A DNA stretch of 64,000 bases from Pseudomonadota bacterium. Lineage in GTDB: Bacteria > Desulfobacterota > Binatia > Binatales > Binataceae. The first letter of the stretch is position 1, and each line of letters opens with the position of its first letter. Location of the stretch: assembly GCA_021323945.1 (NCBI GenBank), contig JAJPKA010000018.1, forward strand, positions 372,453 through 436,452. Direction: 5' to 3'. The notes beneath the pieces were generated by a model. It was not told the DNA's origin and made no database searches. It saw only the letters and a program-made list of their open reading frames with translations. Shown here in pieces: positions 17,584 to 41,025 of the stretch. The translations under genes and the position numbers were made by a program.

Positions 17584-17600
17584 CGGCTCGAGCCCTCACA
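17584..17600 (+). promoter_or_regulatory. Degenerate copy of the putative 17-bp activator site
   Basis: CGGCTC-GAGCC-CTCACA ends about 100 bp before the sigma54 promoter at 17702. Confidence 0.35.
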
Positions 17601-17701
17601 CGATCAGGTTTATGCCGATTGCACGAGATCCAGGGGAAGGCATTTGAGTCCGGTCGCCTCCCTGAAAAGCACACTCGAAAATTACCTCACAATTGGGCCG
17701 G

Positions 17702-17717
17702 TGGCATTCAACCTGCA
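17702..17717 (+). promoter_or_regulatory. Sigma54 -24/-12 promoter for the CBS gene
   Basis: TGGCATTCAACCTGCA (GG-N10-GC), 44 nt upstream of the ATG. Confidence 0.65.
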
Positions 17718-17760
17718 ACACCTTCTGAGAGTGTTCAAGGCAAACCCGAGGAGGTAAGCA

Positions 17761-18192
17761 ATGGAACCGACGAAGGTTCGGGATGTCATGACGGCACCGG
17801 TGGTCACGCTCAGACGCAACGACAAGCTCACTCTCGCCGACGATCTGATGCGACTTGGGAGGATCCGCCATCTTCCCATAGTTGACGATGATGGCGAGCA
17901 GTTGGTCGGTATCCTGAGTCAGCGCGACCTTTTTCGTGGCGCCCTCGCTCAGGCACTCGGTTACGGCCGGTACGCCCAAGGCCGGCTGCTGGAAATGTTC
18001 TCGATAAAGGAAGTGATGACAACCGACGTCATTACGACCAGCCCCGAGACTCTACTGACGGAGGCAGCCAGAGTTTTGATGGAACGCAAGATCGGCTGTC
18101 TTCCGGTGGTAGAGAACGGACGTCTGGTCGGAATCATAACCGAAAGCGATTTCGTCGCTCTGGTAGCACGACAGGCGCAAGAAGCGGGATAA
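17761..18192 (+). CDS. CBS-pair protein
   Basis: IRHLPIVD, IGCLPVV and LVGIITESD; RBS GAGGAGG. Confidence 0.92.
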   Translation: MEPTKVRDVMTAPVVTLRRNDKLTLADDLMRLGRIRHLPIVDDDGEQLVGILSQRDLFRGALAQALGYGRYAQGRLLEMFSIKEVMTTDVITTSPETLLTEAARVLMERKIGCLPVVENGRLVGIITESDFVALVARQAQEAG

Positions 18193-18283
18193 CTGCGTTC
18201 GCAAAGAATTCATGCCCGGTGCTCGTGCGCGGACGTTATTGAAATAAGGTTCGGGGCGCCAGGTCGCGGCAACCAGGAAAAGA

Positions 18284-18718
18284 TCAAATCATCACAACTT
18301 CAGGTTCTAGTTGAACAGGGGTCGACAGTGAAGCCGAAACCAGACAAGTCTCTTCACTCCTGCGTAGAACCCTCAACGCTTTTTCTCTACTTTCACCTGC
18401 CTGAATTGTCAGGCGCGGACGAAGAATAATGCTGGTAAAACGGGTCACTCCCTCCTTGCGGTCGACGGTGCCCTGCGTGCTTAACTCCAAAGACAAGTAC
18501 TCAAGCCTGGAGGCGCGAGCTACGACTTTGAGCGTCAGAGCAAAACAAGTTTCCACAGCGGCTAATAGTAACTGTTCGGGACTCCAGGCATCACCCGGTC
18601 CGTCGAAGTCTCGGGGCGCTGCAGCTCGAAGATCGGGCAAACCCGGGGCTGATATGCGACAATATCCGTCAGCTCTCAGAGATGCTTCCGCGCTATAGAC
18701 ATGCGGTAGTGGCTTCAT
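18284..18718 (-). CDS. OsmC/Ohr family protein
   Basis: WSPEQLLLAAVETCF...CLVS.SL; RBS AAGGAGG. Confidence 0.88.
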   Translation of the reverse strand: MKPLPHVYSAEASLRADGYCRISAPGLPDLRAAAPRDFDGPGDAWSPEQLLLAAVETCFALTLKVVARASRLEYLSLELSTQGTVDRKEGVTRFTSIILRPRLTIQAGESREKALRVLRRSEETCLVSASLSTPVQLEPEVVMI

Positions 18719-18849
18719 AAGCTCCTCCTTCTTTCGGTCCAGAGATAACCGAGGCGCCGGACGCGCATCAGTTCATCCCCGAAATCTCGATGAGCAATTG
18801 CGCTAAGTCCCAGCCGCCTTGAGCGATGGATTCGCCGATGAGAATCGCT

Positions 18850-19252: not shown

Positions 19253-19690
19253 TTACGCCGATGCGGCTTGTTTTGAGGCGGCTGGCCGTATGGTTAAAAC
19301 CGGGCAGAGCGCTTCGCGCAGGACCTTTTCGGCAACGCTGCCGAGGACGACGCGAGCAAGACCTTTTCGGCCATGTGTGGCCATCACAATCAGATCGGCG
19401 CCGAGTTCATCTGCCATCTGAATCGTCAACGCAGCTGGATCACCTTCGCGAACCAATAGGTCATGGATGATCTGATCGCCAAGCTGACTGCGAGCAAAAT
19501 GTTCCAGGTTGCGGCGCGCCAGCTCGGCAACTGGCGGATACGGTTCAGTGGCAACCCCATAGAGGTTGGGGATGACATGCAGCAGGTAAAGCGTGCCACC
19601 CAGATCCAATATCTTGTAGGCGAAGTGCAGCGCTGCAGCAGAATTCTGGTCAAAATCGACCGGGCACAGGATCTTTTTAAATTGAAGCAT
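19253..19690 (-). CDS. Universal stress protein (USP)
   Basis: KKILCPVDF, GDPA and DLIVMATHGR.G...GSVAEKV. Confidence 0.93.
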   Translation of the reverse strand: MLQFKKILCPVDFDQNSAAALHFAYKILDLGGTLYLLHVIPNLYGVATEPYPPVAELARRNLEHFARSQLGDQIIHDLLVREGDPAALTIQMADELGADLIVMATHGRKGLARVVLGSVAEKVLREALCPVLTIRPAASKQAASA

Positions 19691-19809: not shown

Positions 19810-20811
19810 TCACTTTGCGAAGCCTTGAGCGAGAACTTGAAGGCTTGGGCGACTACCAATTGCCACCAATAAGTCACCCGGCTGGATTTCGGTGCGCGCA
19901 TCGGGGACTAGGGTCATTGGTTCCGATCCCCGCTTCAGGCCAACAATTCTGAGGCGGTCGGCGTTATGCTCCAGGCTGCCGATCGTTCTTCCAGCCAGAC
20001 TGCTTCCGGGCTCAACTCGCACTTCTTCGAGCCCAAATTCTTCCGGGCGAAGACCAGGCAGCAGCAGATCGAGAAAGTCGACCACCGAGGGACGAGCGAT
20101 CGTGTTAGCGATGCGCATCGCACTCCAATGATAGGAAGAGATGGGTTGATCGACACCAGCGAGCTGAAGATGCTTGAGGCCTAATTCGGATTCGGCTCTG
20201 GCATGGATGCGGATATGGGGATTACGGTTTCTGGCTGACAGTGCAATGAAGACGTTGTCGGGATCGGATGCCGTCGCGATCACAATTGCGCTCGCGGTGT
20301 CGATGCCAGCCCGCGCGAGCGTGTGTTCCTCCAGCGCCGAGCCGAGAACGTAGGGCTCGCCCGTCTGCGCGAGGATGTCCTCTTTTTCCGGGTCTTTCTC
20401 AATTATAACCAGCGTGGTGGCGTGACGGCGTAATTCCTCGACCACCACCCGGCCGAAACGGCCATAACCACATACGATGACATGTCGGCGAAGCCGTTGA
20501 ATTTTATGCATCATTGCGCTGCGACCAATTAACTCCCGCAATTGGCCGCCAACCACCATTTCGGTGACGGCCGCCAGAACGTAATAGGCGGTGCCCACGC
20601 CGGTCAGGATAAGTGCAATTGTGAAAACCGTGCCTCGCGTATCGAGCGGTTTGACCTCTCCGTACCCCACGGTCGTAATCGTGATAACCGTCATAAAGAG
20701 GGCATCTTCGAACCGCATGCGCTCCAACAGCATATAGCCGCCCGTGCCAACCGCGATGAGCAACGCAATCAGGCCCAATGCGATTAGTAGCCGCTGTTTC
20801 CCCAACTCCAT
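19810..20811 (-). CDS. Potassium channel with RCK (TrkA-N/TrkA-C) domains
   Basis: TITTVGYG selectivity filter, CGYGRFG and C-terminal TrkA-C domain. Confidence 0.92.
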   Translation of the reverse strand: MELGKQRLLIALGLIALLIAVGTGGYMLLERMRFEDALFMTVITITTVGYGEVKPLDTRGTVFTIALILTGVGTAYYVLAAVTEMVVGGQLRELIGRSAMMHKIQRLRRHVIVCGYGRFGRVVVEELRRHATTLVIIEKDPEKEDILAQTGEPYVLGSALEEHTLARAGIDTASAIVIATASDPDNVFIALSARNRNPHIRIHARAESELGLKHLQLAGVDQPISSYHWSAMRIANTIARPSVVDFLDLLLPGLRPEEFGLEEVRVEPGSSLAGRTIGSLEHNADRLRIVGLKRGSEPMTLVPDARTEIQPGDLLVAIGSRPSLQVLAQGFAK

Positions 20812-20922: not shown

Positions 20923-20938
20923 AGCAAGTTGCCTGCCA
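20923..20938 (-). promoter_or_regulatory. Sigma54 promoter for the K-channel/usp unit
   Basis: Minus strand TGGCAGGCAACTTGCT, near consensus. Confidence 0.7.
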
Positions 20939-21040
20939 GGTTGATGCCGGGAAACGGGATCGCGGTTGGACTGGCGACGGGGCTAGCTGCGAAGCGAGGC
21001 GTTTGAGTTTCGATGACACGAACGAAGTGGCGAGCCACGG

Positions 21041-21057
21041 TGGCGCTTCAGGCTACA
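21041..21057. promoter_or_regulatory. Putative enhancer (UAS) site
   Basis: TGGCGC-TTCAG-GCTACA, about 103 bp from the -24 element at 20938. Confidence 0.5.
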
Positions 21058-21435
21058 TGTTCGCTCTCTGTAAACGGTCTTTCTAGAGACTTGAGTTATC
21101 CTGAACCAGAAAACTGCTACATGGGGCGGCGCGTCGAAGTGCACGAAATGTTGCCAGGGGATACATCTTTGAGCTGCATCCACCGATACGCCTCTTTGAG
21201 CGGATGGAAAGATGTGGCCGCCGCGATTTCGTTAGCCGGAGTCGTTATTAACACGCCATCAACCGAAAGTGCGCCAGTTCTGCGTCCACCGGAAACGAAC
21301 AACCGTCGCCGCGGAAGACGGCTCCTCGGGTTCGGCGATCAGTACTCACGGTCGCCTGGGTTCGTGTTTCCGTAAGCGTAAAGGGTATGGTACGGTCCTT
21401 TTTCTACCGGATACTGACTCAGTAGCAAGCGACAA

Positions 21436-22995
21436 ATGTCTAGCGCCAAAGCCGTCAAACCGTCGGTCGCCGACGGAGAGATCCACCCTCGAGCAGGGCT
21501 ACCTCGTCACTTTCATTTGTTGTGGGATGAGGACCTCGAAGAAATGCGTCCCATCTTCCGAGCGATTCGCGATCGACGATCGGAAGTCATCGCTGGCTGG
21601 TACCAGCTCTATACCTTGCATTTCGGCGAGGCGCGTTCGCTGTCCGAGGCGGAGTTCTCTCGAATCTTCGAGCCGGCGCTTTTCCGCAACAAAAACGACC
21701 TGCTCGAAATGAACATGGATCGCTACGCCGGAGATGTCAGAAATCTGGGCAAGCTGTTGGCTGAGCGGGGCGTACCCCTTCAGGAAATAATCGCCTCCTT
21801 ACATCTTTTCGAGGAAGCTGCCCAGAGGGTATTTCCGGCTGAGCCACCGCTGACCCTGGAGACCTACGCCAAATTCGACAAGCTTAGCCATATTCGTATT
21901 ATTTTACTGGTCGACGCGTATCTTCGTGTTTGGTCCGCCGCGACTGGCACCAGAATCGACGGGCTCGAACGCGAGGCCGCTCAGCTGCCGCACGACGGGC
22001 GGAGCCGTTTTCACGGCATAGTCGGTGCTTCGCCGTTGATGCGCGAGCTCTACAAAAGAATAGAAGCGGCGGCGAAAACCCGTGGAACCGTCCTAATCGT
22101 AGGGGAAAGTGGCACGGGAAAGGAGCTGGTTGCCCGCGCACTGCACGAAGCCGGGAGCAGAAGCAAAGCGCCATTTATTGCGTTTAACTGTGCTGCGATT
22201 CCTAAGGATCTGATCGAAAGCGAATTGTTCGGCTACAAACGAGGCGCTTTCAGCGGTGCCAATACCGAATATCCTGGGCTTTTCCGCGCCGCCGAGGGCG
22301 GGACGCTGTTCCTCGATGAAATTACCGAGATGGGGGCGGAAACGCAGACTAAACTCTTGCGAGCGATCCAGGAACGCTCGGTACGGCCCGTGGGCTCGAC
22401 GCGGGAAATCCCTGTAGACGTGCGTCTGATCGCATCGACCAATCGCGATCCGGAGGCTGCTGTGCGTTCCCATTTCCTGCGCGCGGACCTTTATTACAGG
22501 CTCCAGGCCAATGTGCTGCGCGTTCCACCGCTTCGCGAGCGATTAGATGACATACCCCTGCTGGTTGACCATTTTATCAGCGTCTTCAATGAGCGACTTG
22601 GCCGTGGCATTGTCACGGCCGGCATCGAGGAGCGCGCGCTCCGTGCTCTGTCACAGTACCGCTGGCCCGGTAACGTTCGCGAACTCGCCAATGCTATCGA
22701 GAGTGCCATGACTTTCGGCAGTGAGGCGCTGATTCGATTGGAGGATTTGCCGGAAACCATTAACAGGGCGCAATCGTCGAGCCGAACTACTTCGCGGTCG
22801 TCGGCTTCGGCGTCGAATTTAGCTACCTTTGCTGAGGTTGAGCGTGATTTAATTTCACGTGCCCTCGAGGCTTGTCAGTGGAACAAGGTTCAGGCTGCGG
22901 CTATGCTCAAGATCTCCCGCAAGAAGCTTTACGCGAAGATCAACAAGTATCGACTCGAGCGGCCCGCAAGAGCGGGTAGTGGCCAAGCGGAATGA
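21436..22995 (+). CDS. Sigma54-dependent enhancer-binding protein with N-terminal helical globin/RsbRD-like sensor domain
   Basis: GESGTGKE, ESELFGY.RGAFSGA, LFLDEI, WPGNVREL and C-terminal Fis HTH; no receiver domain. Confidence 0.92.
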   Translation: MSSAKAVKPSVADGEIHPRAGLPRHFHLLWDEDLEEMRPIFRAIRDRRSEVIAGWYQLYTLHFGEARSLSEAEFSRIFEPALFRNKNDLLEMNMDRYAGDVRNLGKLLAERGVPLQEIIASLHLFEEAAQRVFPAEPPLTLETYAKFDKLSHIRIILLVDAYLRVWSAATGTRIDGLEREAAQLPHDGRSRFHGIVGASPLMRELYKRIEAAAKTRGTVLIVGESGTGKELVARALHEAGSRSKAPFIAFNCAAIPKDLIESELFGYKRGAFSGANTEYPGLFRAAEGGTLFLDEITEMGAETQTKLLRAIQERSVRPVGSTREIPVDVRLIASTNRDPEAAVRSHFLRADLYYRLQANVLRVPPLRERLDDIPLLVDHFISVFNERLGRGIVTAGIEERALRALSQYRWPGNVRELANAIESAMTFGSEALIRLEDLPETINRAQSSSRTTSRSSASASNLATFAEVERDLISRALEACQWNKVQAAAMLKISRKKLYAKINKYRLERPARAGSGQAE

Positions 22996-25387: not shown

Positions 25388-25691
25388 TAAACACTCTCCC
25401 GTAAAACTCACCGGAGTGAGCAACTGTCAGTGAGCAACCAGCTTATGAACCGCTCAACTAGTCGATACGCGGCGATTGATCCTTTTTCTACAACCCCAAC
25501 GCGCTAAACGGGTTGCGTATCAGATCAGCCTCGTTAGCTTGACCGCTCTCTGTCAAGCGCCTCATCAGCCCGGCTGTAGCTTCGGCTGACTTGAGCCTAC
25601 CAGATTGCTGAGCCGCTAGTTGGCCGAGCAAAAGCCGAACCTTTAATCTCCGCTCGAGCGCTGGCCGCGGCGACGGCTAGCGCAGGAGGGC

Positions 25692-25732
25692 TGGCGCCAA
25701 AAGACACAGAAACTATGGCGCCAATGGTCACA
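25692..25732. promoter_or_regulatory. Tandem putative UAS sites (24-bp period)
   Basis: TGGCGC-CAAAA-GACACA (25692-25708) and TGGCGC-CAATG-GTCACA (25716-25732), 100 bp before the sigma54 promoter. Confidence 0.55.
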
Positions 25733-25831
25733 TTGACTGGCGCTGATTGGCGGAGCTCGCCGCGGAGATCTGGATACTGTCCTGACCAATGATGCGGGTC
25801 TGACCACGCGTCGCTCCGACGCTTGAGCCGC

Positions 25832-25847
25832 TGGCACAGTAGCTGCT
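25832..25847 (+). promoter_or_regulatory. Sigma54 promoter for usp
   Basis: TGGCACAGTAGCTGCT, 37 nt before ATG 25884. Confidence 0.7.
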
Positions 25848-31337: not shown

Positions 31338-31353
31338 AGCAACCGGCGAGCCA
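31338..31353 (-). promoter_or_regulatory. Sigma54 promoter
   Basis: Minus strand TGGCTCGCCGGTTGCT, 43 nt upstream of ATG 31295. Confidence 0.65.
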
Positions 31354-31404: not shown

Positions 31405-31445
31405 TGATGCAAAAGGGTGCAAGACCTCTGGCGCGAATCGCTACA
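31405..31445. promoter_or_regulatory. Tandem putative UAS sites between divergent sigma54 promoters
   Basis: TGATGC-AAAAG-GGTGCA (31405) and TGGCGC-GAATC-GCTACA (31429), 24-bp period. Confidence 0.5.
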
Positions 31446-31557
31446 TTCAGCACAGCCACTATATCGCTTAGCGGGCCGTCAGGTACAGCGCGTTGAGCGA
31501 CTGCGGATTTGCCTTAGCAAGCTCTCGGTTCATCGGCCAACCGAAAGAGGCGCCCGC

Positions 31558-31573
31558 TGGCATGTCCGATGCT
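31558..31573 (+). promoter_or_regulatory. Sigma54 promoter for the DUF2267 gene
   Basis: TGGCATGTCCGATGCT, 37 nt before ATG 31610. Confidence 0.6.
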
Positions 31574-32667: not shown

Positions 32668-32674
32668 TTTCTCA

Positions 32675-33917: not shown

Positions 33918-33952
33918 GCGCCGTTAGGGCCGAACCGTACAGCCATCGAAGC

Positions 33953-34657
33953 ATGGAGGCGCCAACCGATCAGATAGCCGTCCACTGCCGCGGAGTGACG
34001 AAGACCTACGGGTTCGGCGATGCTCGGGTGACTGCGTTGCGAGGTGTCGACCTCGATGTTCGTTGCGGCGAATTGCTTATGCTGGCGGGGCCTTCGGGAT
34101 GCGGCAAGACAACCTTGCTCGCCCTCATTGCAGCGATACTCGATCGCGACGGCGGCGAATGCACGGTGCTCGGCCTCGATCTTCAGAAGATGGAGAAGAC
34201 CGAGCGGGCACGCTTCCGGGCTCGCTCGATTGGCTTCGTATTTCAAACATTCAATCTCCTGCCCGCGCTCAGTGCGACCGAGAACGTCGCCGCGCCGCTG
34301 TTAATCAACGGGTTCTCACGTTCGCAGGCGGTTTGTCGGGCGAGGGAGATCCTCGACGCAGTGGGTTTGAAGACGCGCAAAGATGCCCTTCCCAGCAATC
34401 TCAGCGGGGGCCAGCAACAACGGGTCGCGATTGCGCGCGCGTTGGTTCACAGTCCGCGGGTGGTCATCTGCGACGAGCCGACCAGTCAACTCGATCGCGA
34501 AACTGGGCAAGCCGTGATGGAAGTGCTGCGAACTTTTGCGCGGAGCGTGGACCGCGCTGTGATCGTTGTTACTCATGACAACCGCATTTTCGAGTTCGCA
34601 GATCGCCTGGCTCGAATGGACGATGGCAGGATAGTTGAGGTGCTCAGGGGCGGATAG
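33953..34657 (+). CDS. ABC transporter ATP-binding protein (MacB/LolD/DevA type)
   Basis: GPSGCGKT, LSGGQQQRVAIARA, DEPT and VTHD. Confidence 0.93.
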   Translation: MEAPTDQIAVHCRGVTKTYGFGDARVTALRGVDLDVRCGELLMLAGPSGCGKTTLLALIAAILDRDGGECTVLGLDLQKMEKTERARFRARSIGFVFQTFNLLPALSATENVAAPLLINGFSRSQAVCRAREILDAVGLKTRKDALPSNLSGGQQQRVAIARALVHSPRVVICDEPTSQLDRETGQAVMEVLRTFARSVDRAVIVVTHDNRIFEFADRLARMDDGRIVEVLRGG

Positions 34658-34664
34658 TCCGTGG

Positions 34665-35606
34665 ATGGCAATGATTCGGAAGTACATCCTCCCGGGCCTG
34701 GCGGTCATCGGTCTGATTGTTGGCATTGGGACCGTGTTACGCGGCCATCGACCACCGGCAGTGGAACCCCCTGTGTCGGCGCCAGCACAAGCACCGTACA
34801 CGTCCTATGTTGCAGGTGCCGGCATTGTCGAGGCGGCGACAGAGAATATCGCAGTTGGCACCCCGGTATCAGGAATAGTGACTGCGATCTACGTCAAGTG
34901 GGGCGATCACGTGAATGTGGGAGACCCGCTGTTCAAGATTGACGATCGCGATCTTCAGGCAGATCTCCTGCCCGCAGTCGCAAAAGTTAAAGAGGCGGAA
35001 GCGGCGCTGAGTATGGCAAGGAATCAGCTCAGGTTGGTAGAGAGGGTGCCGGATAAACGCGCGATTAGTGTCGCAGAGCTGACCGACCACAGTTCCAAGG
35101 TAGCGGTCGCTGAAGCCGCGGTTGAGCTCGCGAAGGCTCGAGTCAAGCAAATCAGAATGGAGATTCAGCGGCGAACCATTCGGGCGCTGGTCTCCGGACG
35201 AATTTTGCAAATCAAGCTGCGATTGGGGGAGTTCGCGCAGGCGGGAGTTCTGGCCACGCCGCTGATAGTTTTGGGCCAGGATTCGCCGTGGCTCCACGTC
35301 CGCGTCGATATCGATCAGAATGACGCGTGGAGGTTCCGGCCGGGTGCGCCGGCAATGGGCTTCGTGCGGGGCAACGCGCGGCTTAGGACCCCACTCCAAT
35401 TCGTGCGTGTCGAGCCATATGTCATCCCGAAGATATCGTTCACCGGCCAAAGTTCCGAACGCGTCGATACTCGTGTGTTGCAGGTTATCTATAGCTTCGA
35501 TTCATCGGCGTTGCCGGTCTACGTAGGTCAGCAGCTCGACGTCTTTGTCCAGGCTCCTCCGCCGAGTTGGGCTTCGAGGCAACAGCTCACCGACCCGCTC
35601 AAATGA
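34665..35606 (+). CDS. Efflux periplasmic adaptor (HlyD/MFP)
   Basis: N-terminal TM, lipoyl-like halves, coiled coil and ERVDTRVLQVIY. Confidence 0.88.
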   Translation: MAMIRKYILPGLAVIGLIVGIGTVLRGHRPPAVEPPVSAPAQAPYTSYVAGAGIVEAATENIAVGTPVSGIVTAIYVKWGDHVNVGDPLFKIDDRDLQADLLPAVAKVKEAEAALSMARNQLRLVERVPDKRAISVAELTDHSSKVAVAEAAVELAKARVKQIRMEIQRRTIRALVSGRILQIKLRLGEFAQAGVLATPLIVLGQDSPWLHVRVDIDQNDAWRFRPGAPAMGFVRGNARLRTPLQFVRVEPYVIPKISFTGQSSERVDTRVLQVIYSFDSSALPVYVGQQLDVFVQAPPPSWASRQQLTDPLK

Positions 35607-37045
35607 ACTTGTCGCATTCTCGGCTGATGGCGGCACTGCTGGCCGCTGTCGTTGGCGGTTGCGTAGTGGGGCCTGCCTATCACCCGCCAGTTGAAAATTT
35701 GCCCGCGCACTGGAGCGAAATGACGCCCGCGACCTCGCCATCCACGAGGGCGGTTAGCAGGACCTGGTGGCAGGAGTTCAAAGATCCGGAACTGAATTCG
35801 CTCCTGCAGCGGGCCGCGCGCAACAACCTCGGAATCAAGCAGGCTGAAGCGCGGATCCGCGAGGCTCGCGCGAAGTATAGATTCGCTTCTGCCGCGCTGT
35901 GGCCGTCGGCAGACGCTAGTGCTTCCTACACGCGTCTTTTGCAGGACGAGGACATTTTCGGACCGCTATCAGCCGGGCCGTTTCCGGTTGTGCTTGGTCA
36001 GCAACCCGAGAACCTTTTTGAAGCTGGCTTCGATGCGCAGTGGGAGATCGACCTGTTCGGCCACGCCCGACGGACGGTGGAAGCGGCACAGGCGGATGTG
36101 GCGGGCTCTTACTATCGTCGCGCCGAGGCAACATTGACGATTATCGCCGAGGTGGCGCGCAATTACATCGAACTCCGCGGTTTCCAGCAACAACTGGCAA
36201 TTGCGCGCCGTAACCTGGCCGTCCAGAAGGACATCCTGGCCCTGACGAGAGCGCGCTACACGGGCGGCTTGGTCTCCGAACTCGACGTGCAGCGGGCGCA
36301 GGCGCTGGTAGAGTCGACCGCGGCGAGCATTCCTGCGCTGGAAGTCTCGTATCAAAATGCGGCCCATCGTTTGAGCGTGCTGCTGGGGGAGTTTCCAGGA
36401 GCGCTCGACAGTGAACTGCGGTACCCGCAGCCGATTCCTGTCGCTCCTTTCGATTTGCCGCCCGATCTGCCGTCGTCCTTGCTTCGACAACGTCCCGACA
36501 TCCGGCGCGCCGAGCGGAAGGTGGCCGCAGCGACGGCACGAATTGGCGTGGCGACGTCGGACCTTTATCCGAGGTTTTCGCTGATCGGATTCGCGGGGCT
36601 GGAGAGCTTGGCGGCCAGTGAGTTTTTTGATAGCGGCAGCAGGTTCTGGGGGATCGGCCCCTCGATCACCTGGCCCATCTTTCGGGGGCGACAGCTCGTG
36701 GCTGTCATAAAGGTGCGCCAGGCGCAGCAACAGCAGGCGGTTATCGCGTACCGCCAGACAATCCTTAAGGCGGTTGAAGAAGTGGAAAACGCGCTCGCCG
36801 CCTACACTCACGAGCGAGATCGGCGCATGGTCCTTGCGAATGCTGTGACCGCGAAGCGGCGGGCCGCGTCGTTGGCGCGTGCCCTTTACCTGAGCGGTCT
36901 GACAGATTTCTTGAGCGTGCTCGATGCACAACGGGATCTCCTGCAAAGTCAGCGCGACCTCGCGCGCAGCGACACCGCTCTGTCGTGTGCGGTCGTCGCC
37001 TTGCATAAGGCGCTGGGCGGCGGATGGCGGGATCCGTCGCAGTAG
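35603..37045 (+). CDS. NodT/TolC family outer-membrane efflux lipoprotein
   Basis: Lipobox VGGC, WW..F.D..L, WEIDLFG, RPDIR.AE and KALGGGW. Confidence 0.92.
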   Translation: MNLSHSRLMAALLAAVVGGCVVGPAYHPPVENLPAHWSEMTPATSPSTRAVSRTWWQEFKDPELNSLLQRAARNNLGIKQAEARIREARAKYRFASAALWPSADASASYTRLLQDEDIFGPLSAGPFPVVLGQQPENLFEAGFDAQWEIDLFGHARRTVEAAQADVAGSYYRRAEATLTIIAEVARNYIELRGFQQQLAIARRNLAVQKDILALTRARYTGGLVSELDVQRAQALVESTAASIPALEVSYQNAAHRLSVLLGEFPGALDSELRYPQPIPVAPFDLPPDLPSSLLRQRPDIRRAERKVAAATARIGVATSDLYPRFSLIGFAGLESLAASEFFDSGSRFWGIGPSITWPIFRGRQLVAVIKVRQAQQQQAVIAYRQTILKAVEEVENALAAYTHERDRRMVLANAVTAKRRAASLARALYLSGLTDFLSVLDAQRDLLQSQRDLARSDTALSCAVVALHKALGGGWRDPSQ

Positions 37046-37099
37046 TCTGGCCCGCGGACAAAGCTCGCTCGGCCAGGGTTGAAGCCAGGGAATTTGAAA

Positions 37100-38296
37100 A
37101 TGTTCGGTATTGCGCTGAAGATGCTCATCGGGGATCGCGCTAAGTATAGTGGACTGGTCTTCGGGGTCGCTTTCACCTCGTTTTTGGTCACCTTCGCGAT
37201 GTCCTTCTTCTCGGGCTTCCTGACCCGAGGGTTTGCGCTGATCGCGGAAAATCCCACGGTCGATGTCTGGGTGATGGACCCGAGTGTCCGCTCGGTCGAA
37301 CTCACTACAAATCTGCCGGCATCGGCACTTAGCGAGGTGCGTAGTGTGGTCGGCGTGCGGTCAGCAGTGCCGCTGGCTCTTGGTATGGCCGAGGCGCGCT
37401 TTGCCAATGGTTGCTTCCAACAAGTTCAGGTGATCGGCGTTGATGATTCGACTCTTGGCGGCCTGCCACCGATAGCCGATGCCACTAGTGCAATTGTGCT
37501 ACGTGCGTCCGACGCCGTGATTGTCGATTCGGGTGGAACGTCTGGGAAACTTGAGACCCCGCGACGACAGAACGATCAGTGGGCGTACGGCGCACCGCGC
37601 CTGGATGCCCCGACTCGCCCGCTGTCAAGGGGCGATGAGCTACTGGTCAACGACCACCGGGTGTGGGTCGCGGGGCGCGCGCACGGGTTATCGCGCTTTC
37701 CGCCAAGGCCGCTGTTGTACACCACGTTCTCGAACGCCGATCGTATTCTGCTGCCTGAGCGTCGGCGCCTTACCTTCGTCCTCGCCACTGCCATGCCAGG
37801 CGTGTCTTCCCGAGAGCTCGCACGACGCATCGAGCGTCAAACTGGCCTGCGCGCGCGCACCTCAGCCGAATTCAAGGCTGATACCGTGCGTTGGTACCTG
37901 GCCAATTCCGAAGATGTCGAGGATGTAGGCTGGATGCTGGCGCTTGCGGGAGTAGTCGGGCTCGGAATCACCGGAGTGATGCTTTATATGTTCACGACCG
38001 AGAACCTCTGGCAGTACGCTGTGCTGAGCGCGATGGGTGTGACCCCGCGAATGCTGATGATGACTATCTTTGTTCAGGCAGGACTCTGCGCATTGCTTGG
38101 AACCGGACTTGGAATCGGATCATGTGCAGTCGCTGGCAGCCTTGCCGCAGATATTGCGCACTATCCCTTTCGGATGATGTGGTTCACGCCACTGGCCGGA
38201 GGCGCTGCCGTGCTGCTGGTGAGCCTGGTTGCCGCCTTACTAAGTAGCCGGCCAGTACTAAAGCTGCAGCCAATGCTAGTATTTGAGAGGCGCTAG
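37100..38296 (+). CDS. ABC transporter permease (FtsX/DevC-like)
   Basis: ALKML.GDRAKY.GL and 1+3 TM topology. Confidence 0.88.
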   Translation: MFGIALKMLIGDRAKYSGLVFGVAFTSFLVTFAMSFFSGFLTRGFALIAENPTVDVWVMDPSVRSVELTTNLPASALSEVRSVVGVRSAVPLALGMAEARFANGCFQQVQVIGVDDSTLGGLPPIADATSAIVLRASDAVIVDSGGTSGKLETPRRQNDQWAYGAPRLDAPTRPLSRGDELLVNDHRVWVAGRAHGLSRFPPRPLLYTTFSNADRILLPERRRLTFVLATAMPGVSSRELARRIERQTGLRARTSAEFKADTVRWYLANSEDVEDVGWMLALAGVVGLGITGVMLYMFTTENLWQYAVLSAMGVTPRMLMMTIFVQAGLCALLGTGLGIGSCAVAGSLAADIAHYPFRMMWFTPLAGGAAVLLVSLVAALLSSRPVLKLQPMLVFERR

Positions 38297-38484
38297 AAAG
38301 CAGGGCGAACGAATCATGGCCAGAGAAATTCAGCGAGAAACAGAGAAATATGGACGAACCAGGGTAAAATAGGGGATGAGTTCGACAGGTCGAGTAACTC
38401 GTTGGCCGCAATAAGGTCAGGCGCTAAGGCAGATGAGCCCGCCGCCCTAACCGCGAGGACTGAACAGCCGCGCGAGGGAAGTGT

Positions 38485-39534
38485 CTACGCGATGTAGGCG
38501 CATGCCTGGTCGAGGTAGCACCTTGCCATCTCACGACACGCGATTCGTTCAGCAACCGGCCTGTCGAGTTGGTTGCTCGCGATCAGCTCGACTTTGGCCC
38601 GCACGAGTGCGCGATAACATTGGTAAAATGGAAGGAGCACAGGTAACGCTCCATCGCCGGTTGCCAGAACGTAAGATCGGACCAGCTCGGTCGCAAGCTC
38701 GGGTGCTTTAAGACGATCCAGATCCATCGCCAGAAACGCAACTTCCGAGGCAGTATCCCCATAACGTAACGCCGCGCTGAATTCCACGCAGTCGATAATT
38801 CTGATTCCTCCGTCGGTCAAATAAACCGAGTCAGTCCGTAGGTCTCCGTGACCGTCCAGAACATAGCCGTTAAGTGCCCTTGTATTAAGAAATTGCCAGC
38901 GCGCAGATATGTAACTTCGGGCATAGGCTTCGATTAACCTAAGTTTATCGCGGCTGACCGTATCTGCCAGAAGTCGTTCTGTTTCGGCGATATTGCCGAC
39001 AACTAACCGCCAGATAGCGGCTGCAGTTCCATAGCGCCAAGCTTCCTGTCTCGAGGCGGTGGCGTGAAATTCAGCCAGGCGGTTTGCAACCCCCTGAATC
39101 TCGGCGGCGCTGATCTTTCTGGCAGCAATTCGATTGTCGAGTCGCTGGTCATCCGGTAGTCGGCGCATTTTCACGGCAAATTCAATCGCAGCTTGCTCAT
39201 CTTTGGGCGCTTGGCCGAAACGAAAAGTGCCGTCTCTAAACGTTATCGGGACGACTGCAAGGTACACATCGGGCGCCAACCGACGATTGAGAATTATCTC
39301 GCATTTACAGAGCTCGTGACGTTTGCCGAGCGTTGAAGAGTCGAGCCATGGCAACCGAAGGGGTTTCTTTATTTTGTAAGCAAACTCTTCAGTGAGAAAG
39401 ACATAAGAAATGTGGGTTTGTCGTAGCTCGATTGGACTGGAACCAGGTCCGTAGAAATCCGACCGCATCATCGCATCGACGAGACTGGGAGGAGACTGAT
39501 CTTTGAGTTCTTCGGCTGTCGCCATTTGAGTCAC
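38485..39534 (-). CDS. Aminoglycoside-phosphotransferase-like kinase (COG2187; N-half of Rv2004c-type proteins)
   Basis: THISYVF, AYKIKKP, LNRRLAP.VY, HGDL, IIDCVEF and YRA.VRAKV. Confidence 0.82.
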   Translation of the reverse strand: MTQMATAEELKDQSPPSLVDAMMRSDFYGPGSSPIELRQTHISYVFLTEEFAYKIKKPLRLPWLDSSTLGKRHELCKCEIILNRRLAPDVYLAVVPITFRDGTFRFGQAPKDEQAAIEFAVKMRRLPDDQRLDNRIAARKISAAEIQGVANRLAEFHATASRQEAWRYGTAAAIWRLVVGNIAETERLLADTVSRDKLRLIEAYARSYISARWQFLNTRALNGYVLDGHGDLRTDSVYLTDGGIRIIDCVEFSAALRYGDTASEVAFLAMDLDRLKAPELATELVRSYVLATGDGALPVLLPFYQCYRALVRAKVELIASNQLDRPVAERIACREMARCYLDQACAYIA

Positions 39535-39539
39535 TCGCC

Positions 39540-40343
39540 TTACTGCAGCTCGATGCAGGCCTTGAGCAGGTCGGTTGTAGAAACAATGCCCACAAGAGTG
39601 TCGCCGTCCAGGACGGGTAGTGCCCCAATTTTCCGTTCACTGAGAAGCCGAGCAGCATCCCAGACTGACGTCCGAGGTGTCACGGTTATCAACTTGGTGG
39701 TCATCACCTGGTCGGCCGTCAGTGAGTCAAGCGAGCTCAAGTGTGTTCTGATATCGCGATCCGTGAGAATGCCAACCAGTCTGCCGTCCGCAACGACTGG
39801 CAGGCTTCGGAATTTGCCCTCCTGCATCAGCACGACAGCTTTAGGGAGTCTCTCGGCGGGCGTAATTGTGATCGGATGAGGTGTCATCCAGTGCCGGACT
39901 AAAAAGCGGTCGGCGGGGTAGATTTTGACGGTTAAGACCGGGCAGCTGACCTCGCTCATCACAGCTTCCGCCACACTGCCGAGAAAGAAACGGGAGAAAC
40001 CTCGCCGGCCATGGGTCGACATGACAATCAGATCGGCTGGGAGCCTCTTTGCCGAGGCAACAATGATCACGGCGGGGTCACCGAGGGCCGTTTCCGCTAT
40101 CCAATGAACGTTACCAAGATAATGCGAAGCCAGCTCGGCAAGGTCAGCCTTTACCTCCTCCTGCTGCCTCTTTGCTAGATTACCCAATGCTGGCAGGTCC
40201 TCTCCTCGCAACACCACTGGGACGACGTGCAGAACGTGCACTTCAGCATCGCTCTGCCGTGCCAAGTCCCCAGCTAGCTCAAGCGCATTTCGCGCGCTGC
40301 TATCGAGGTCGACTGGGCAGAGAATCTTCTTAAAAGCAGCCAT
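39540..40343 (-). CDS. USP + CBS-pair fusion protein
   Basis: N-terminal KKILCPVD...STHGRRG; C-terminal FRSLPVV and IGALPVL. Confidence 0.9.
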   Translation of the reverse strand: MAAFKKILCPVDLDSSARNALELAGDLARQSDAEVHVLHVVPVVLRGEDLPALGNLAKRQQEEVKADLAELASHYLGNVHWIAETALGDPAVIIVASAKRLPADLIVMSTHGRRGFSRFFLGSVAEAVMSEVSCPVLTVKIYPADRFLVRHWMTPHPITITPAERLPKAVVLMQEGKFRSLPVVADGRLVGILTDRDIRTHLSSLDSLTADQVMTTKLITVTPRTSVWDAARLLSERKIGALPVLDGDTLVGIVSTTDLLKACIELQ

Positions 40344-40441
40344 TCGGGCTCCATGGATATCTCAAACTGGCCGTTAGTTAGCAGGTGAAGCCCCGCAGAG
40401 TCGCGATTGTCAATTCGCAACTCTGCGATGAGCACCGTTGG

Positions 40442-40924
40442 TTATCCGACGGACTTTGCTGAGGTCGCGGAAGCCTCTTCGAGAGGGATTTTCTTCGGCG
40501 TCAATGCTTTTACCACCGGCATCGCTATCTCGACGACGCCATTTTTGAAGCTCGCTTTGATCTGCTGGGCGTCGACTTCTTCGGGTAGTGTAAGGCGCCG
40601 CTCGAACGAGCCGTAAACGGTCTCACGCCTTATATATTCCTCTTGTTTAACCTGCTCTTGCTGCTTGCGCTCTCCTTTGATTGTGAGCACGTTGCCGAGC
40701 ACGCTGAGTTCGATGTCTTTGGGTTCCAGACCCGGAACGTCGGCGCGAATCACCAGATTGCCATCCTTGACATAGCTCTCGATGGCAGGGAGATACGGCG
40801 CCTCAAGGTCCGCAGGCTCGAGGTCGTGAAACAGTCTCCCGAAGTGCCGGCTGAACTCACGATCCATCTCACGGCGCCAGCGCTCAAGTTCATGAAACGG
40901 TCGCCACAAGGTCAAATCTGCCAT
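40442..40924 (-). CDS. Hsp20 family protein
   Basis: ADVPGL, YGSFERR..LP and ASFKNGVVEI; RBS AAGGAGG. Confidence 0.92.
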   Translation of the reverse strand: MADLTLWRPFHELERWRREMDREFSRHFGRLFHDLEPADLEAPYLPAIESYVKDGNLVIRADVPGLEPKDIELSVLGNVLTIKGERKQQEQVKQEEYIRRETVYGSFERRLTLPEEVDAQQIKASFKNGVVEIAMPVVKALTPKKIPLEEASATSAKSVG

Positions 40925-41009
40925 TGGAGCACATCCTCCTTCGCACTAGAATTGCGGCCCTTTGGGCCGTGCAGAGTATACGCAGCCTGTTGTTTCAACC
41001 GCGGAGAGG

Positions 41010-41025
41010 TGCAGCAAATGTGCCA
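41010..41025 (-). promoter_or_regulatory. Sigma54 promoter for the hsp20-usp/cbs-kinase operon
   Basis: Minus strand TGGCACATTTGCTGCA. Confidence 0.65.

Follow-up and report, generated by a model that had tools for sequence, protein, structure and literature searches.

Genes and candidate promoters at the locus

The window, a 64,000-nt stretch of DNA from an uncultured soil bacterium of the family Binataceae, encodes USP, Usp-CBS, CBS and Hsp20 proteins, an APH-like kinase that matches the kinase half of Rv2004c-type proteins, a DUF2267 protein and an RCK-gated K+ channel; genes for qNor and NirK adjoin this set. The initial annotation had placed six TGGC-N8-TGC(A/T) elements 37-112 nt ahead of six genes. 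All six lie where it put them, strand included, and their recomputed distances to the start codons are 36-111 nt in the correct orientation (Table 1). The gene identities also stand as named, except that orf106, described as 'ACT-like', has no Pfam or NCBIfam match.

All six sites have the GG-N10-GC geometry typical of sigma-54 promoters at workable distances from the start codon, and an SD sequence is present at all three starts that were inspected (CBS, usp and DUF2267); an alternative upstream usp ATG at 25869 lacks one. Their -12 elements read CTGC or TTGC, and those of relatives are mostly TCGC or TAGC. Among the six candidates, the one ahead of CBS (17702) is weakest. Judging from gene spacing, the usp transcript possibly extends into an LLM-porin-cyt c-cyt c-NirK series (26395-30793; same strand, gaps of at most 97 nt). 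The first hsp20 gene (window position 3879) lacks a sigma-54 site, as had been noted before, and norB has none of score 4.5 or higher.

Table 1. Candidate promoters, predicted activator sites and the activator gene in the window (coordinates count from the first letter of the window; bits refer to the activator-site PWM unless stated otherwise)
Feature	Position	Strand	Sequence	Details
Candidate -24/-12 promoter, CBS-pair gene (17761-18192)	17702..17717	+	TGGCATTCAACCTGCA	consensus score 5; gap 43 nt to ATG 17761; SD GAGGAGG
Candidate -24/-12 promoter, K-channel (19810-20811) - Usp (19253-19690) transcription unit	20923..20938	-	TGGCAGGCAACTTGCT	score 6; gap 111 nt to ATG 20811
Predicted UAS of K-channel promoter	21147..21167	.	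AATGTTGCCAGGGGATACATC	219 nt upstream; 18.4 bits, genome rank 3
Sigma-54 enhancer-binding protein gene, 519 aa	21436..22995	+		Pfam Sigma54_activat 9.5e-66, AAA_lid_14, HTH_8
Two tandem predicted activator sites, usp promoter	25690..25734	.	TGGCGCCAAAAGACACA, TGGCGCCAATGGTCACA	12.7, 12.8 bits; 24 nt apart, centers 132 and 108 nt upstream of the promoter
Candidate -24/-12 promoter, usp (25884-26345)	25832..25847	+	TGGCACAGTAGCTGCT	score 6; 15.1 bits by a PWM trained on other genomes; gap 36 nt to ATG 25884; SD GGAGG
Candidate -24/-12 promoter, orf106 (30975-31295)	31338..31353	-	TGGCTCGCCGGTTGCT	score 6; gap 42 nt to ATG 31295
Predicted activator site common to the divergent orf106 and DUF2267 promoters	31427..31447	.	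TCTGGCGCGAATCGCTACATT	15.2 bits, genome rank 12; 84 nt from orf106 promoter, 121 nt from DUF2267 promoter
Candidate -24/-12 promoter, DUF2267 gene (ATG 31610, end 32023)	31558..31573	+	TGGCATGTCCGATGCT	score 5.5; gap 36 nt to ATG 31610; AGGAGG ahead
Candidate -24/-12 promoter, hsp20 (40442-40924) - usp-CBS (39540-40343) - APH-like kinase (38485-39534) operon	41010..41025	-	TGGCACATTTGCTGCA	score 6; gap 85 nt to ATG 40924
Weak predicted activator site, hsp20 promoter	41083..41103			10.0 bits
Best genome match to activator-site PWM	42515..42535	.	TCCGTATCCAATGGATACAGG	19.6 bits, rank 1

Position and conservation of the candidate sigma-54 sites

Taken by itself, the motif is no more frequent than expected. 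The bare TGGC-N8-TGCW pattern is not enriched in the window (10 matches versus 5.85 ± 2.30 expected; 8 of 100 shuffles reach 10), and of its 366 matches genome-wide, 37 are intergenic, in sense orientation and at most 400 nt from a gene, compared with 25-35 intergenic sense matches for the wrong spacers N6, N7, N9 and N10. A sigma-54 PWM derived from 29 promoters in other genomes finds 50 matches of at least 14 bits in the genome versus 48.3 in shuffled sequence; a frequency equal to background is literally the outcome that the initial annotation had named as speaking against its proposal. By the same PWM, a single window site, that of usp, is among the best 70 genome matches and the other five fall outside. 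Such numbers favor the explanation that most of the six matches arose by chance from a low-information motif, with the genes served by sigma-70-type or other promoters and at most the hsp20 operon dependent on sigma-54.

The case for sigma-54 sites is instead made by position and conservation, not by motif frequency. In the intergenic DNA up to 250 nt upstream of genes, a consensus score of at least 5 is reached at 6 of 54 window genes versus 40 of 2,883 genome-wide (hypergeometric P = 7.7e-5), where the 2,883 are crude gene calls that do not include orf106 and the six window genes comprise five of the earlier-noted sites plus one at 61721. Outside the window, all 86 paralogues of the target gene families lack such a site. 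These figures, like the uniform placement of the sites 36-111 nt ahead of start codons with an SD sequence wherever inspected, argue against chance.

For conservation, we examined 29 Binataceae loci around activator orthologues (10 and 19 from two collections; L035 and L038 were left out because they duplicate L120 and L122), counting sites with a consensus score of at least 5.5 within 250 nt. A canonically spaced sense-strand site precedes 22 of 49 orthologous Usp-CBS, Hsp20, DUF2267, CBS and K-channel genes, versus 1 of 49 on the antisense strand and 1, 0, 0 and 0 of 49 for sense-strand spacers of 2, 3, 5 and 6 nt (the correct spacer being 4); in these and all other cross-genome counts the relatives are non-independent samples. 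This strand and spacer specificity is the outcome of a conservation check that the initial annotation had proposed, and it is hard to reconcile with chance. Among non-target genes, 3 of 43 have a sense site and 6 of 43 an antisense site, the latter because of divergent target promoters.

Conservation is uneven among the six. Many loci have counterparts of the hsp20 promoter ahead of their Hsp20 and Usp-CBS genes; in a genome of the same genus (G003, locus L111), TGGCACACTTGCTGCT precedes the identical hsp20 / usp-CBS / APH-like kinase trio. The DUF2267 promoter has counterparts upstream of orthologues in L039, L116 and L119, and stand-alone CBS genes in L114, L116, L117 and L123 carry promoters of the form TGGCA(A/G)GC-N4-TTGC(A/T). 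A counterpart of the K-channel promoter lies in L034, ahead of a K-channel orthologue that adjoins the activator, and was not found at the K-channel orthologues of G003 and G001, of the same genus, where the gene is located elsewhere. For the usp and orf106 promoters, the loci examined offer no conserved counterpart, which, together with the K-channel absences, also favors chance. Weighing both sides, we regard chance as improbable: judged by where they lie and how they are conserved, most of the six predicted sites are likely real.

A palindrome upstream of the promoters

Five of the six promoters have, 68-219 nt upstream, a 17-bp palindrome with the consensus TGTATC-N5-GATACA; the exception is the CBS promoter at 17702, where no such site reaches 7 bits. 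Perfect palindromes (12/12) occur three times, in three other genomes. The organism's own 3.74 Mb genome has none, and its best copies are degenerate, matching at most 10 of the 12 specified positions. Within 10,307 nt of DNA upstream of promoters there are 23 matches to at least 9 of 12 positions, a density of 2.23 per kb versus 0.187 per kb in the genome; the motif was derived from the same sequences in which this enrichment was measured. The tandem sites at 25690-25734, in the norB-usp intergenic region, and the site at 31427-31447 were outside the set used to build the PWM. The latter lies between the divergent orf106 and DUF2267 promoters, and L116 and L123 have an equal divergent arrangement around an activator site.

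The window holds 8 of the best 60 genome matches to the PWM, including ranks 1 and 3. Pairing an activator site of at least 10 bits with a sigma-54 site of score at least 5.5 located 50-260 nt downstream gives 8 pairs, versus 0 in the wrong-side control, a further argument against chance. When the sigma-54 score is lowered to at least 5, 8 of 16 pairs are intergenic, 6 of these 8 in the window. The K-channel UAS sits inside the 624-nt gap between the K-channel and activator genes, where an ORF covering it (21013-21375) has no family match and no homologue in any locus. The rank 1 site is upstream of hemH (43080), within 870 nt that contain no convincing gene; the sole sigma-54-like match downstream of it is a weak, palindromic one, TGGCACAGGGTGTGCC, at 42777.

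The reading given in the initial annotation stands in part. The gene set does appear to be wired to sigma-54, as upheld by rpoN, the strand- and spacer-specific recurrence of -24/-12 sites at orthologues and the activator site at five of six promoters; support falls short at the CBS promoter (no activator site), the K-channel promoter (absent in two same-genus genomes) and the usp and orf106 promoters (no conserved counterpart).

The neighboring activator

The absence of rpoN, which had been named as a finding that would count against the regulon, does not apply: the gene is present and intact (a 522-aa open frame, 208 bits). Eleven proteins in the genome have a full sigma-54 interaction domain and one of them, encoded at 21436-22995, is in the window; it lies inside the interval of the initial annotation, which overlooked it. 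The protein consists of a predicted globin-fold sensor (about residues 22-170), an AAA+ sigma-54 interaction domain with the Walker A motif GESGTGKE, and a C-terminal Fis-type HTH. The canonical loop of sigma-54 activators is GAFTGA; here it reads GAFSGA. The activator has no receiver or GAF domain and no Pfam match in residues 1-195, and it scores below the cut-offs of NorR and all other NCBIfam equivalogs.

Pairing this activator with the six promoters rests on adjacency and co-occurrence, in a genome that encodes ten others. It is therefore conceivable that the promoters are real and driven by another of the ten, for instance a two-component response regulator, with the globin-type activator serving different or partly overlapping targets. 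The number of activators, the missing palindrome at the CBS promoter and the degeneracy of the activator sites in this genome all fit that explanation. In related genomes such as G023, the globin-type activator has as many as seven paralogues, which also fits it and makes a one-to-one assignment uncertain.

The genomic distribution argues for the neighboring protein. At most of the 29 loci the activator is next to target operons, and the palindrome lies at typical enhancer distances and is common to divergent promoter pairs. Of 24 other Binataceae genomes, 19 encode the sensor domain (18 of 23 if the unpublished G019 is excluded); among 16 genomes of the class that belong to other families, 1 has it. 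Three genomes without it (95-97% complete) also lack the fused Usp-CBS gene, and their Usp or CBS loci, five in all together with those of G002, have no site in the correct position. We thus consider control by a different activator unlikely, and put the probability that the activator encoded at 21436-22995 runs a local sigma-54 regulon at roughly 0.7.

A predicted globin fold without the proximal histidine

In its AlphaFold2 model (pLDDT 84.8), the N-terminal domain of the activator is a predicted globin fold. All 50 matches listed by VIA-align are globin-fold proteins, judged by their titles, and the top match has a Z of 14.6 (rmsd 2.6, 138 residues aligned), although a Z of 14 is unremarkable for helical models by VIA-align's own note. 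The sensor globins 4uiq, 4zva, 2w31 and 5ohe score Z 14.4-13.6, RsbR (2bnl) 13.4 and pXO2-61 (3pmc) 11.4. Foldseek E-values are only 0.02-0.1, and the activator itself has no Pfam globin match; P0107, a histidine-kinase member of the sensor-domain family, exceeds the threshold of Pfam Protoglobin (29.4 bits, cut-off 25).

In the common motif G-R-x-H-x3-G-V-P, Leu108 replaces the histidine of P0107 and the syNOS globin. In 25 orthologues, this leucine shows conservation of 90% or more, and no histidine is invariant across the wider family. Because leucine occupies the position of the proximal histidine, the usual heme binding may not occur, and the oxygen/NO reading is weakened. RsbR-type globins are non-heme, and certain globin-like sporulation inhibitors bind fatty acid.

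Proposed mechanism and signal

NorR, XylR and DmpR are one-component activators whose N-terminal domain restrains the ATPase until the signal arrives. By analogy with enhancer-binding proteins, a dimer of the window activator would bind the TGTATC-N5-GATACA palindrome through its Fis-type HTH and then assemble into an AAA+ hexamer, whose GAFSGA loop would reach the promoter-bound sigma-54 holoenzyme by DNA looping; ATP hydrolysis would then open the promoter. As in NorR, XylR and DmpR, the globin-fold domain would keep the ATPase off until the signal is sensed. The predicted output consists of nucleotide-sensing and protective proteins, possibly joined by the NirK nitrite-reductase operon. We read this as a survival programme for low energy, low oxygen or nitrosative stress.

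We give oxygen, NO or redox a little less than an even chance of being the signal and leave the remainder to different stresses or metabolites; any connection with hypoxia or NO is only what we infer from gene content and the neighboring qNor and NirK. That the signal of a real regulon is unrelated to oxygen or NO is also quite plausible, if short of probable: general envelope, osmotic or heat stress could serve, as could energy charge or a small metabolite or lipid held in a heme-free globin pocket. The circuit would then be closer to the RsbR-type non-heme globins or the fatty-acid-binding globin-like sporulation inhibitors than to a DosR or Nmp analogue. The conserved Leu108, the lack of an invariant histidine, the structural matches to RsbR and pXO2-61, and outputs that include Hsp20, OsmC and the K+ channel are all in keeping with such a signal. 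Against it stand the adjacent qNor and NirK genes, the porin-cyt c-NirK operon of L041, which has its own conserved site, and the family member P0013, in which hemerythrin and DUF2249 domains precede the globin-like domain. Moreover, the Binataceae orthologues conserve H152, H62, Y59 and Y162, residues that could offer an atypical means of cofactor binding.

Comparison with known systems

The initial annotation had regarded a regulon of this kind as undescribed, a claim that needs qualifying. The closest published system is NmpRSTU/NmpR of Myxococcus xanthus, a sigma-54 hypoxia regulon that includes CBS and USP genes and receives its input from a protoglobin sensor (PMC11841059). The hypoxia response of that regulon, as described there, speaks against a signal unrelated to oxygen or NO in Binataceae. 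Set beside the Myxococcus system (PMC11841059), the Binataceae circuit appears to be a one-protein variant of the oxygen-response circuit, in which the predicted globin-fold sensor lies within the activator itself.

Sigma-54-type elements face six gene units of stress-related families

The pattern TGGC-N8-TGC(A/T) matches the window ten times, and six of these matches are exactly the promoters proposed in the initial annotation, each recovered in its place, intergenic and oriented towards a gene. Sigma-54 promoters are recognized by a GG and a GC dinucleotide 10 nt apart within TGGCAC-N5-TTGCW-like flanks. In 6/6 sites the two dinucleotides are exactly 10 nt apart, and a simple -24/-12 consensus score reaches 5-6 out of 7. 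The gaps between motif and start codon that we list in the table were measured after re-examination of the start codons.

By Pfam, the gene starting at 17761 encodes a CBS pair. The K channel combines Ion_trans_2 with TrkA_N/C, and a Usp gene and, further on, OsmC follow it. The usp gene is succeeded on the same strand by genes for a luciferase-like monooxygenase (LLM), a porin, two c-type cytochromes and a copper nitrite reductase (NirK). Pfam also confirms the DUF2267 family, finds no family match for orf106, and places a Usp-CBS fusion and then a 349-aa protein (orf349) behind Hsp20. The Atlas model of orf349 matches APH-type phosphotransferases as well as the APH part of ~510-aa APH+AAA_33 proteins (TM 0.87-0.92). 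The genome (3.74 Mb, 22 contigs), in which the window occupies C22:372453-436452, contains rpoN, whose absence would have spoken against the proposal by the initial annotation's own account (PF04552, 208.5 bits; 522-aa open frame; C11:109020-109496).

Coordinates of promoters, activator sites and neighbouring features in the window. Activator-site distances run from the site centre to the promoter.
Feature	Position	Start codon	Motif-start gap (nt)	Activator site (nt upstream)	Activator-site score (bits)	Remark
CBS gene promoter	17702	ATG 17761	43			no activator site of at least 7 bits
K-channel gene promoter	20938	ATG 20811	111	219	18.4	
usp promoter	25832	ATG 25884	36	132 and 108	12.7 and 12.8	GGAGG ahead of start
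orf106 promoter	31353	ATG 31295	42	84	15.2	activator site common to DUF2267
DUF2267 gene promoter	31558	ATG 31610	36	121	15.2	activator site common to orf106; AGGAGG ahead of start
hsp20 promoter	41025	ATG 40924	85	68	10.0	
Activator gene	21436-22995 (+)					
Quinol NO reductase gene (norB)	23135-25388 (-)	ATG 25388				SD GGAGAG
Region upstream of norB	25389-25868					480 nt
Best sigma-54-like match before norB	25627-25642					AGGTTCGGCTTTTGCT
ORF rejected as a gene	21013-21375					
HEM4/URO-D fusion gene	14416-16485					single ORF, 689 aa
LLM gene	26395-27507					
BlaI/BlaR1-like pair and efflux set	32639-38296					
Stretch upstream of hemH	42200-43080					870 nt
Strongest activator site	42515-42535				19.6	
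Weak palindromic match	42777-42792					TGGCACAGGGTGTGCC
hemH (ferrochelatase)	43080-44024					
hemH and protoporphyrinogen-oxidase-like gene	43080-45505					
Additional sigma-54-like match	61721-61736					TGGCAAGCGGTTGGCT
ORF downstream of it	61893-62732					

The elements are enriched by position and not by number

By number the motif is not above chance: the ten matches in the window compare with 5.85 +/- 2.30 expected, and genome-wide the loose pattern gave 37 sense-oriented intergenic matches, with 25-35 for the wrong spacers. A position weight matrix (PWM) trained on 29 promoters from other genomes found 50 sites of at least 14 bits versus 48.3 in shuffled genomes. The initial annotation had said that a frequency equal to background would speak against it, and read literally this is the outcome, as expected of a low-information motif across 7.5 million positions.

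Position tells a different story. Using crude gene calls (2,883 genes, 82% coding), we looked for genes that have, within at most 250 nt of upstream intergenic DNA, a site reaching a consensus score >=5. Such a site precedes 40 of the 2,883 genes genome-wide and 6/54 window genes (P = 7.7e-5). The six positive genes correspond to five of the originally proposed promoters, orf106 being absent from these gene calls, and to the additional match at 61721. The enrichment of sigma-54 sites is significant by position alone, not by frequency. None of 86 paralogues of the target families outside the window (~74 LLMs, 8 Hsp20 genes and one copy each of Usp, CBS, Usp-CBS-like and orf349) has such a site, and the other hsp20 gene of the window indeed lacks one, as had been noticed originally. 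The match at 61721 scores 5, with a non-canonical GGCT at -12, and lies 157 nt upstream of an ORF; we saw no activator site beside it.

A putative enhancer-binding protein is encoded within the gene cluster

The genome encodes 11 full sigma-54 activators, one of them within the window, where its gene is divergent from the K-channel operon and adjoins the quinol nitric-oxide reductase gene. The product contains a sigma-54 interaction domain (PF00158, 9.5e-66), an AAA lid and a Fis-type helix-turn-helix (HTH_8, 6e-13), with a Walker A motif GESGTGKE, a Walker B motif LFLDEI and a sigma-54 contact loop GAFSGA, a variant of GAFTGA. An AAA+ module bearing Walker motifs and contact loop, joined to a C-terminal HTH, is the hallmark of enhancer-binding proteins, and by these sequence features the protein is one. 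It stays below the cut-offs of the NCBIfam equivalogs for NorR, NtrC, NifA and all other named activators, and a search for a receiver domain gave no Response_reg match. We rejected its assignment as NorR: model NF003451 scores 298.4 bits versus a cut-off of 476, and the alignment starts only at residue 155. The core of the initial interpretation, a stress regulon wired to sigma-54, appears to be right, with its activity predicted; the interpretation was incomplete because it missed the activator, its DNA site and its sensor, although the activator gene lies inside the interval that it described.

The N-terminal domain is predicted to adopt a globin fold

Residues 1-195 of the activator match no Pfam family, Protoglobin and Globin included, and give nothing at E <=1 other than a spurious Arfaptin match. 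An alignment of 25 orthologues was the input of an AF2 model. The N-terminal domain was modeled as seven helices with a mean pLDDT of 84.8. Foldseek against the PDB returned globin-fold proteins only, with weak E-values (0.02-0.1). VIA-align against 48,161 chains gave 5ziq as the best match (Z 14.6, rmsd 2.6, 138 residues aligned), and among sensor globins 4uiq (BpeGReg, Z 14.4), 4zva (DosC, Z 14.1), 2w31 (Z 13.6), 5ohe (AfGcHK, Z 13.6, rmsd 3.2, 138 residues), the 2bnl RsbR N-domain (Z 13.4) and 1or4 (HemAT, Z 13.1); the best 50 rows were all globin-fold proteins, as judged from their titles. Helical models often reach Z 14 in VIA-align, so the assignment of the fold depends on how uniform this match list is and on links in sequence.

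The sequence links come from a rare sensor-domain family. A profile of the 25 orthologues retrieved 248 cluster representatives among 1.84 billion proteins. The 30 members that we scanned comprise 17 sigma-54 activators, 4 histidine kinases, 8 proteins with GAF domains and one that carries DUF2249 and hemerythrin in front of the sensor domain; among them the domain also feeds histidine kinases and GAF proteins. One of the kinases, P0107, passes Pfam Protoglobin with 29.4 bits, and the sensor domain itself has a weak profile match to the stressosome protein RsbR of Vibrio vulnificus (7o0i_B, E = 0.065). Taken with the model, these matches argue for a globin fold in the activator's N-terminal domain. 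Profile matches to S100-A9 (E = 3e-4) were set aside as a spurious likeness between helices, since every structural match, like the model itself, is a globin. We also rejected membership in the photoglobins, for which there is a low-ranking match only (8j2w, Z 9.9) and whose survey paper contains no sigma-54 architectures. The cluster representative P0013 has DUF2249 and a hemerythrin domain N-terminal to its globin-like domain; behind that domain its AAA+ part degenerates, and the gene, from a metagenome, may carry a frameshift.

The alignment further suggests how the domain differs from heme-binding relatives. In P0107, His91 within G-R-S-H-AEA-G-V-P aligns with the histidine in G-R-L-H-GNA-G-V-P of the syNOS globin domain, a position that probably corresponds to the proximal (F8) heme-ligating histidine. 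The activator reads G-K-L-L108-AER-G-V-P here, and L108 is kept in at least 90% of the 25 orthologues. The proximal histidine expected of globin-coupled sensors thus appears to be replaced by leucine, and heme binding by the sensor domain is doubtful. Y59, E117, D148, H152 and Y162 are invariant in the 25 orthologues, though not across the wider sensor-domain family.

Promoter elements of several target families are conserved with strand and spacing beside activator orthologues

The sensor domain is present in 19/24 other genomes of the family (18/23 without the unpublished G019) and in 1/16 genomes of other families of the class. We compared 29 orthologue loci, 10 of them named MAG loci and 19 from these genomes; L035 and L038 were left out as duplicates of L120 and L122, and no other duplicates were evident in a screen that was not rigorous. 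Two arrangements recur beside the activator: Usp-CBS followed by the orf349 kinase, behind TGGCACG-N4-(T/A)(C/A)GCT, and a divergent CBS-pair gene behind TGGCA(A/G)GC-N4-TTGC(A/T). Hsp20, DUF2267 and, in locus L034, the K channel also stand beside the activator, each with a site, and in locus L041 the porin-cytochrome c-NirK operon has GGGCACGCTCGTTGCT.

For a count with an internal control by strand and spacer, we accepted sites with a score >=5.5 and included target-family genes whose match begins within the first 40 residues and whose upstream DNA was at hand. On the sense strand with the canonical spacer, 22/49 target-family genes have a site, versus 1/49 on the antisense strand and 1, 0, 0 and 0 of 49 on the sense strand with spacers 2, 3, 5 and 6. 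Non-target genes have a site in 3/43 cases on the sense strand and 6/43 on the antisense strand, the latter being divergent target promoters. Since 12/49 target genes are orf349, mostly second in its operon, the rate for first genes is higher. Conservation upstream of orthologues, which the initial annotation had named as a check, is borne out by these counts.

Strand- and spacing-specific conservation covers the Hsp20, Usp-CBS, DUF2267 and CBS families. In G003, a genome of the same genus, the hsp20 - usp-CBS - kinase operon lies behind TGGCACACTTGCTGCT, the counterpart of TGGCACATTTGCTGCA in the window. The K channel has a conserved site in 1/3 genomes; its orthologues in G003 and G001, also of the same genus, stand in another gene context without a site. 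For the usp and orf106 promoters no conserved counterpart was found. Three genomes without the sensor domain (G017, G018 and G022, 95-97% complete) yielded no fused Usp-CBS gene with the query used, and no correctly placed site precedes any of the 5 Usp or CBS loci from these genomes and the incomplete G002, which supplied one of the five. In DNA footprinting within the genus, coding sequence alone aligned, at 65-78% identity, so that no intergenic alignment was possible. The activator is multiplied in some relatives, with seven matches in G023 and three in several genomes; G008 holds a tandem pair whose members are separated by 1.6 kb and enclose a Usp-CBS gene (L113).

A palindromic candidate activator site lies upstream of the promoters

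When we searched the 240 nt ahead of each of 34 promoters for dyads, TGTATCCG/CGGATACA and TGGC-N9-TACA emerged in 9 sequences each, versus a shuffle maximum of 5-6. Upon inspection these dyads resolved into the 17-bp palindrome TGTATC-N5-GATACA. With at least 9 of 12 positions matching, it occurs 23 times in 10,307 nt of promoter-upstream DNA, compared with 0.187 per kb in the genome, an enrichment that is circular because the motif was derived from the same sequences. Copies that match it perfectly stand at -90 (L039, Usp-CBS), at -80 (L113, Usp-CBS) and at -77 (L115, Hsp20), and there is none in the 3.74 Mb of the window's own genome.

A genome scan with a 21-nt PWM provides a partly independent check. 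Eight of the 60 best matches fall in the window, which makes up 1.7% of the genome; four of the eight (42515, 31427 and the pair 25690/25714) were outside the PWM training, whereas the site at 21147 was used in it. The site at 42515 ranks first in the genome, 21147 third and 31427 twelfth. An activator site of at least 10 bits lies 50-260 nt upstream of a sigma-54 site (score >=5.5) eight times genome-wide and never on the wrong side. With a sigma-54 score >=5 there are 16 such pairs; 8 are intergenic, and 6 of those are in the window. An ORF upstream of the activator gene (21013-21375) has no family match and no homologue in any locus, and was treated as regulatory spacer rather than as a gene.

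The strongest activator site stands in the stretch upstream of hemH, which contains no convincing gene and no Rfam match. Within ~250 nt of it we found no canonically spaced promoter, apart from the weak palindromic TGGCACAGGGTGTGCC. The site could serve a small gene or RNA that is not annotated, or it could serve hemH, which would then have a long leader.

Heme, nitric-oxide and efflux genes lie around and among the predicted regulon members

For norB we found no sigma-54 promoter of score >=4.5, the best match, AGGTTCGGCTTTTGCT, scoring 4. The region upstream of this gene also holds the usp promoter and its two tandem activator sites. Heme-synthesis genes lie on both sides of the regulon: an ORF that fuses uroporphyrinogen-III synthase (HEM4) to uroporphyrinogen decarboxylase (URO-D) on one, hemH and a protoporphyrinogen-oxidase-like (PPO) gene on the other. 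A linkage of hemH in relatives was rejected, as no hemH or PPO gene occurs in any locus examined. The LLM gene has ~75 tblastn places (E <=1e-8) in the genome, a paralogue family very large for 3.7 Mb, and an LLM gene also adjoins the activator in L033, L040 and L115. Between regulon members, and without sigma-54 sites, lie a BlaI/BlaR1-like repressor/sensor pair and, after it, a MacAB-TolC-like efflux set made up of an ABC ATPase, an HlyD-type adaptor, an outer-membrane factor and an FtsX-type permease. An Rfam scan of window positions 14000-46000 found no family at gathering score.

A model for direct control by a globin-fold sensor

By analogy with established enhancer-binding proteins, activator dimers would bind the TGTATC-N5-GATACA palindrome. 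Release of the AAA+ domain by the globin-fold domain would then permit assembly of a hexamer, which would reach the sigma-54 holoenzyme at the -24/-12 element by DNA looping and open the promoter through ATP hydrolysis. The predicted targets are the hsp20 - usp-CBS - kinase operon, the divergent orf106 and DUF2267 genes, the K-channel - usp unit, and usp, perhaps together with the LLM-porin-cytochrome c-NirK genes behind it; the CBS gene would be a target with less support. Of the 9 public sequencing runs that contain the stretch, none is listed as RNA.

Low oxygen, NO or redox is suggested as the signal by the neighbouring quinol NO reductase and NirK genes, by the family member that is fused to hemerythrin and by the parallel with the published Nmp system of Myxococcus xanthus. 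The missing proximal histidine of the sensor and its resemblance to RsbR leave room for other stress or metabolite signals. On the boldest reading, a globin-fold domain that has lost the canonical heme-binding histidine would feed directly, within one protein, into a sigma-54 AAA+ activator, and in Binataceae this activator would govern, through TGTATC-N5-GATACA, USP, CBS, Hsp20, APH-like kinase, DUF2267 and K-channel genes as a programme of the dormancy type. We give this reading about an even chance (roughly 0.5), and would name the fused architecture a 'globin-coupled enhancer-binding protein'.

If true, Binatota, an uncultured phylum that is common in soils and mine sites, would have its first regulatory circuit, one in which sensor, DNA site and targets are all defined, and the sigma-54 AAA+ motor would be a new output module for the globin sensor superfamily. 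Because the sensor domain may be heme-free, its ligand could bear on what RsbR and other non-heme sensor globins detect. A limit to the value is that the circuit logic itself, sigma-54, enhancer and stress genes, is textbook.

Comparison with known systems

NorR of Escherichia coli and Ralstonia is an NO-sensing, one-component sigma-54 activator whose sensor is a GAF domain with mononuclear iron. The activator described here likewise is of one-component design, lacks a receiver, has an N-terminal sensor that would control AAA+ and is encoded next to a nitric-oxide reductase gene. Its sensor is predicted to have a globin fold rather than a GAF fold, and unlike in NorR systems norB has no qualifying sigma-54 site. 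RsbR of Bacillus subtilis is a non-heme globin sensor of the stressosome (2bnl), whereas its Vibrio vulnificus namesake binds heme (7o0i); its output is a STAS domain in a partner-switching cascade leading to sigma-B. Both here and in RsbR a globin-fold sensor, non-heme in Bacillus, would sit atop a general-stress transcription programme. The output differs, with a fused AAA+ motor acting on sigma-54 here in place of STAS partner switching towards sigma-B.

DosR/DevR of Mycobacterium tuberculosis is a response regulator of the NarL/LuxR type that acts on sigma-70-type promoters and is served by GAF-heme kinases. The initial annotation had called the gene set DosR-like, and this holds for the output families, namely USP, alpha-crystallin/Hsp20, a CBS-pair protein and an APH-type kinase (Pfam, and the Atlas model for orf349), and for the nitrogen-oxide and respiration context. 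It does not extend to the regulator, which belongs to another family, a sigma-54 activator with a putative globin-fold sensor. The DosR likeness is one of output only, by gene family and not by orthology.

The regulon had also been presented as undescribed. We found no description of a globin-AAA+ sigma-54 fusion in the literature, and the main text of the Binatota genomics paper does not mention sigma, universal stress, globin, nitric oxide, hypoxia or Hsp20. The novelty was nonetheless overstated, since the Nmp system shares the logic and part of the output.

NmpRSTU of Myxococcus xanthus is the closest published system. The heme protoglobin kinase NmpU feeds a phosphorelay of four proteins, comprising NmpU, NmpT, the hybrid kinase NmpS and the receiver-domain, NtrC-like activator NmpR; NmpU needs heme, and NmpR, which binds GCGCA-N5-TGCGC, acts under hypoxia on the sigma-54 promoters of hemN, of cbb3 oxidase and of genes for a CBS protein, a USP and a hemerythrin, and activates them (PMC11841059). 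Both systems, the one here by prediction, use sigma-54 promoters and an enhancer-binding protein on a palindrome with a 5-nt centre, include a CBS-domain protein and a single-domain USP, are tied to heme and oxygen genes, and draw their input domain from the globin/protoglobin superfamily. AfGcHK (5ohe), the Anaeromyxobacter homologue of the Nmp sensor, matches the sensor domain here with Z 13.6. The palindromes differ (TGTATC-N5-GATACA versus GCGCA-N5-TGCGC), and the NmpR-regulon genes named in the parts of the paper considered include none for Hsp20, DUF2267, an APH-like kinase or a K channel. Unlike heme-dependent NmpU, the sensor here has leucine at the proximal histidine position, so that canonical heme ligation is probably absent. 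Here the globin-like domain is fused directly to AAA+ without a receiver, which would unite sensing and activation in one protein. If true, the USP/CBS/Hsp20 'dormancy' set is under at least three unrelated controls: DosR, the Nmp phosphorelay and a one-component activator.
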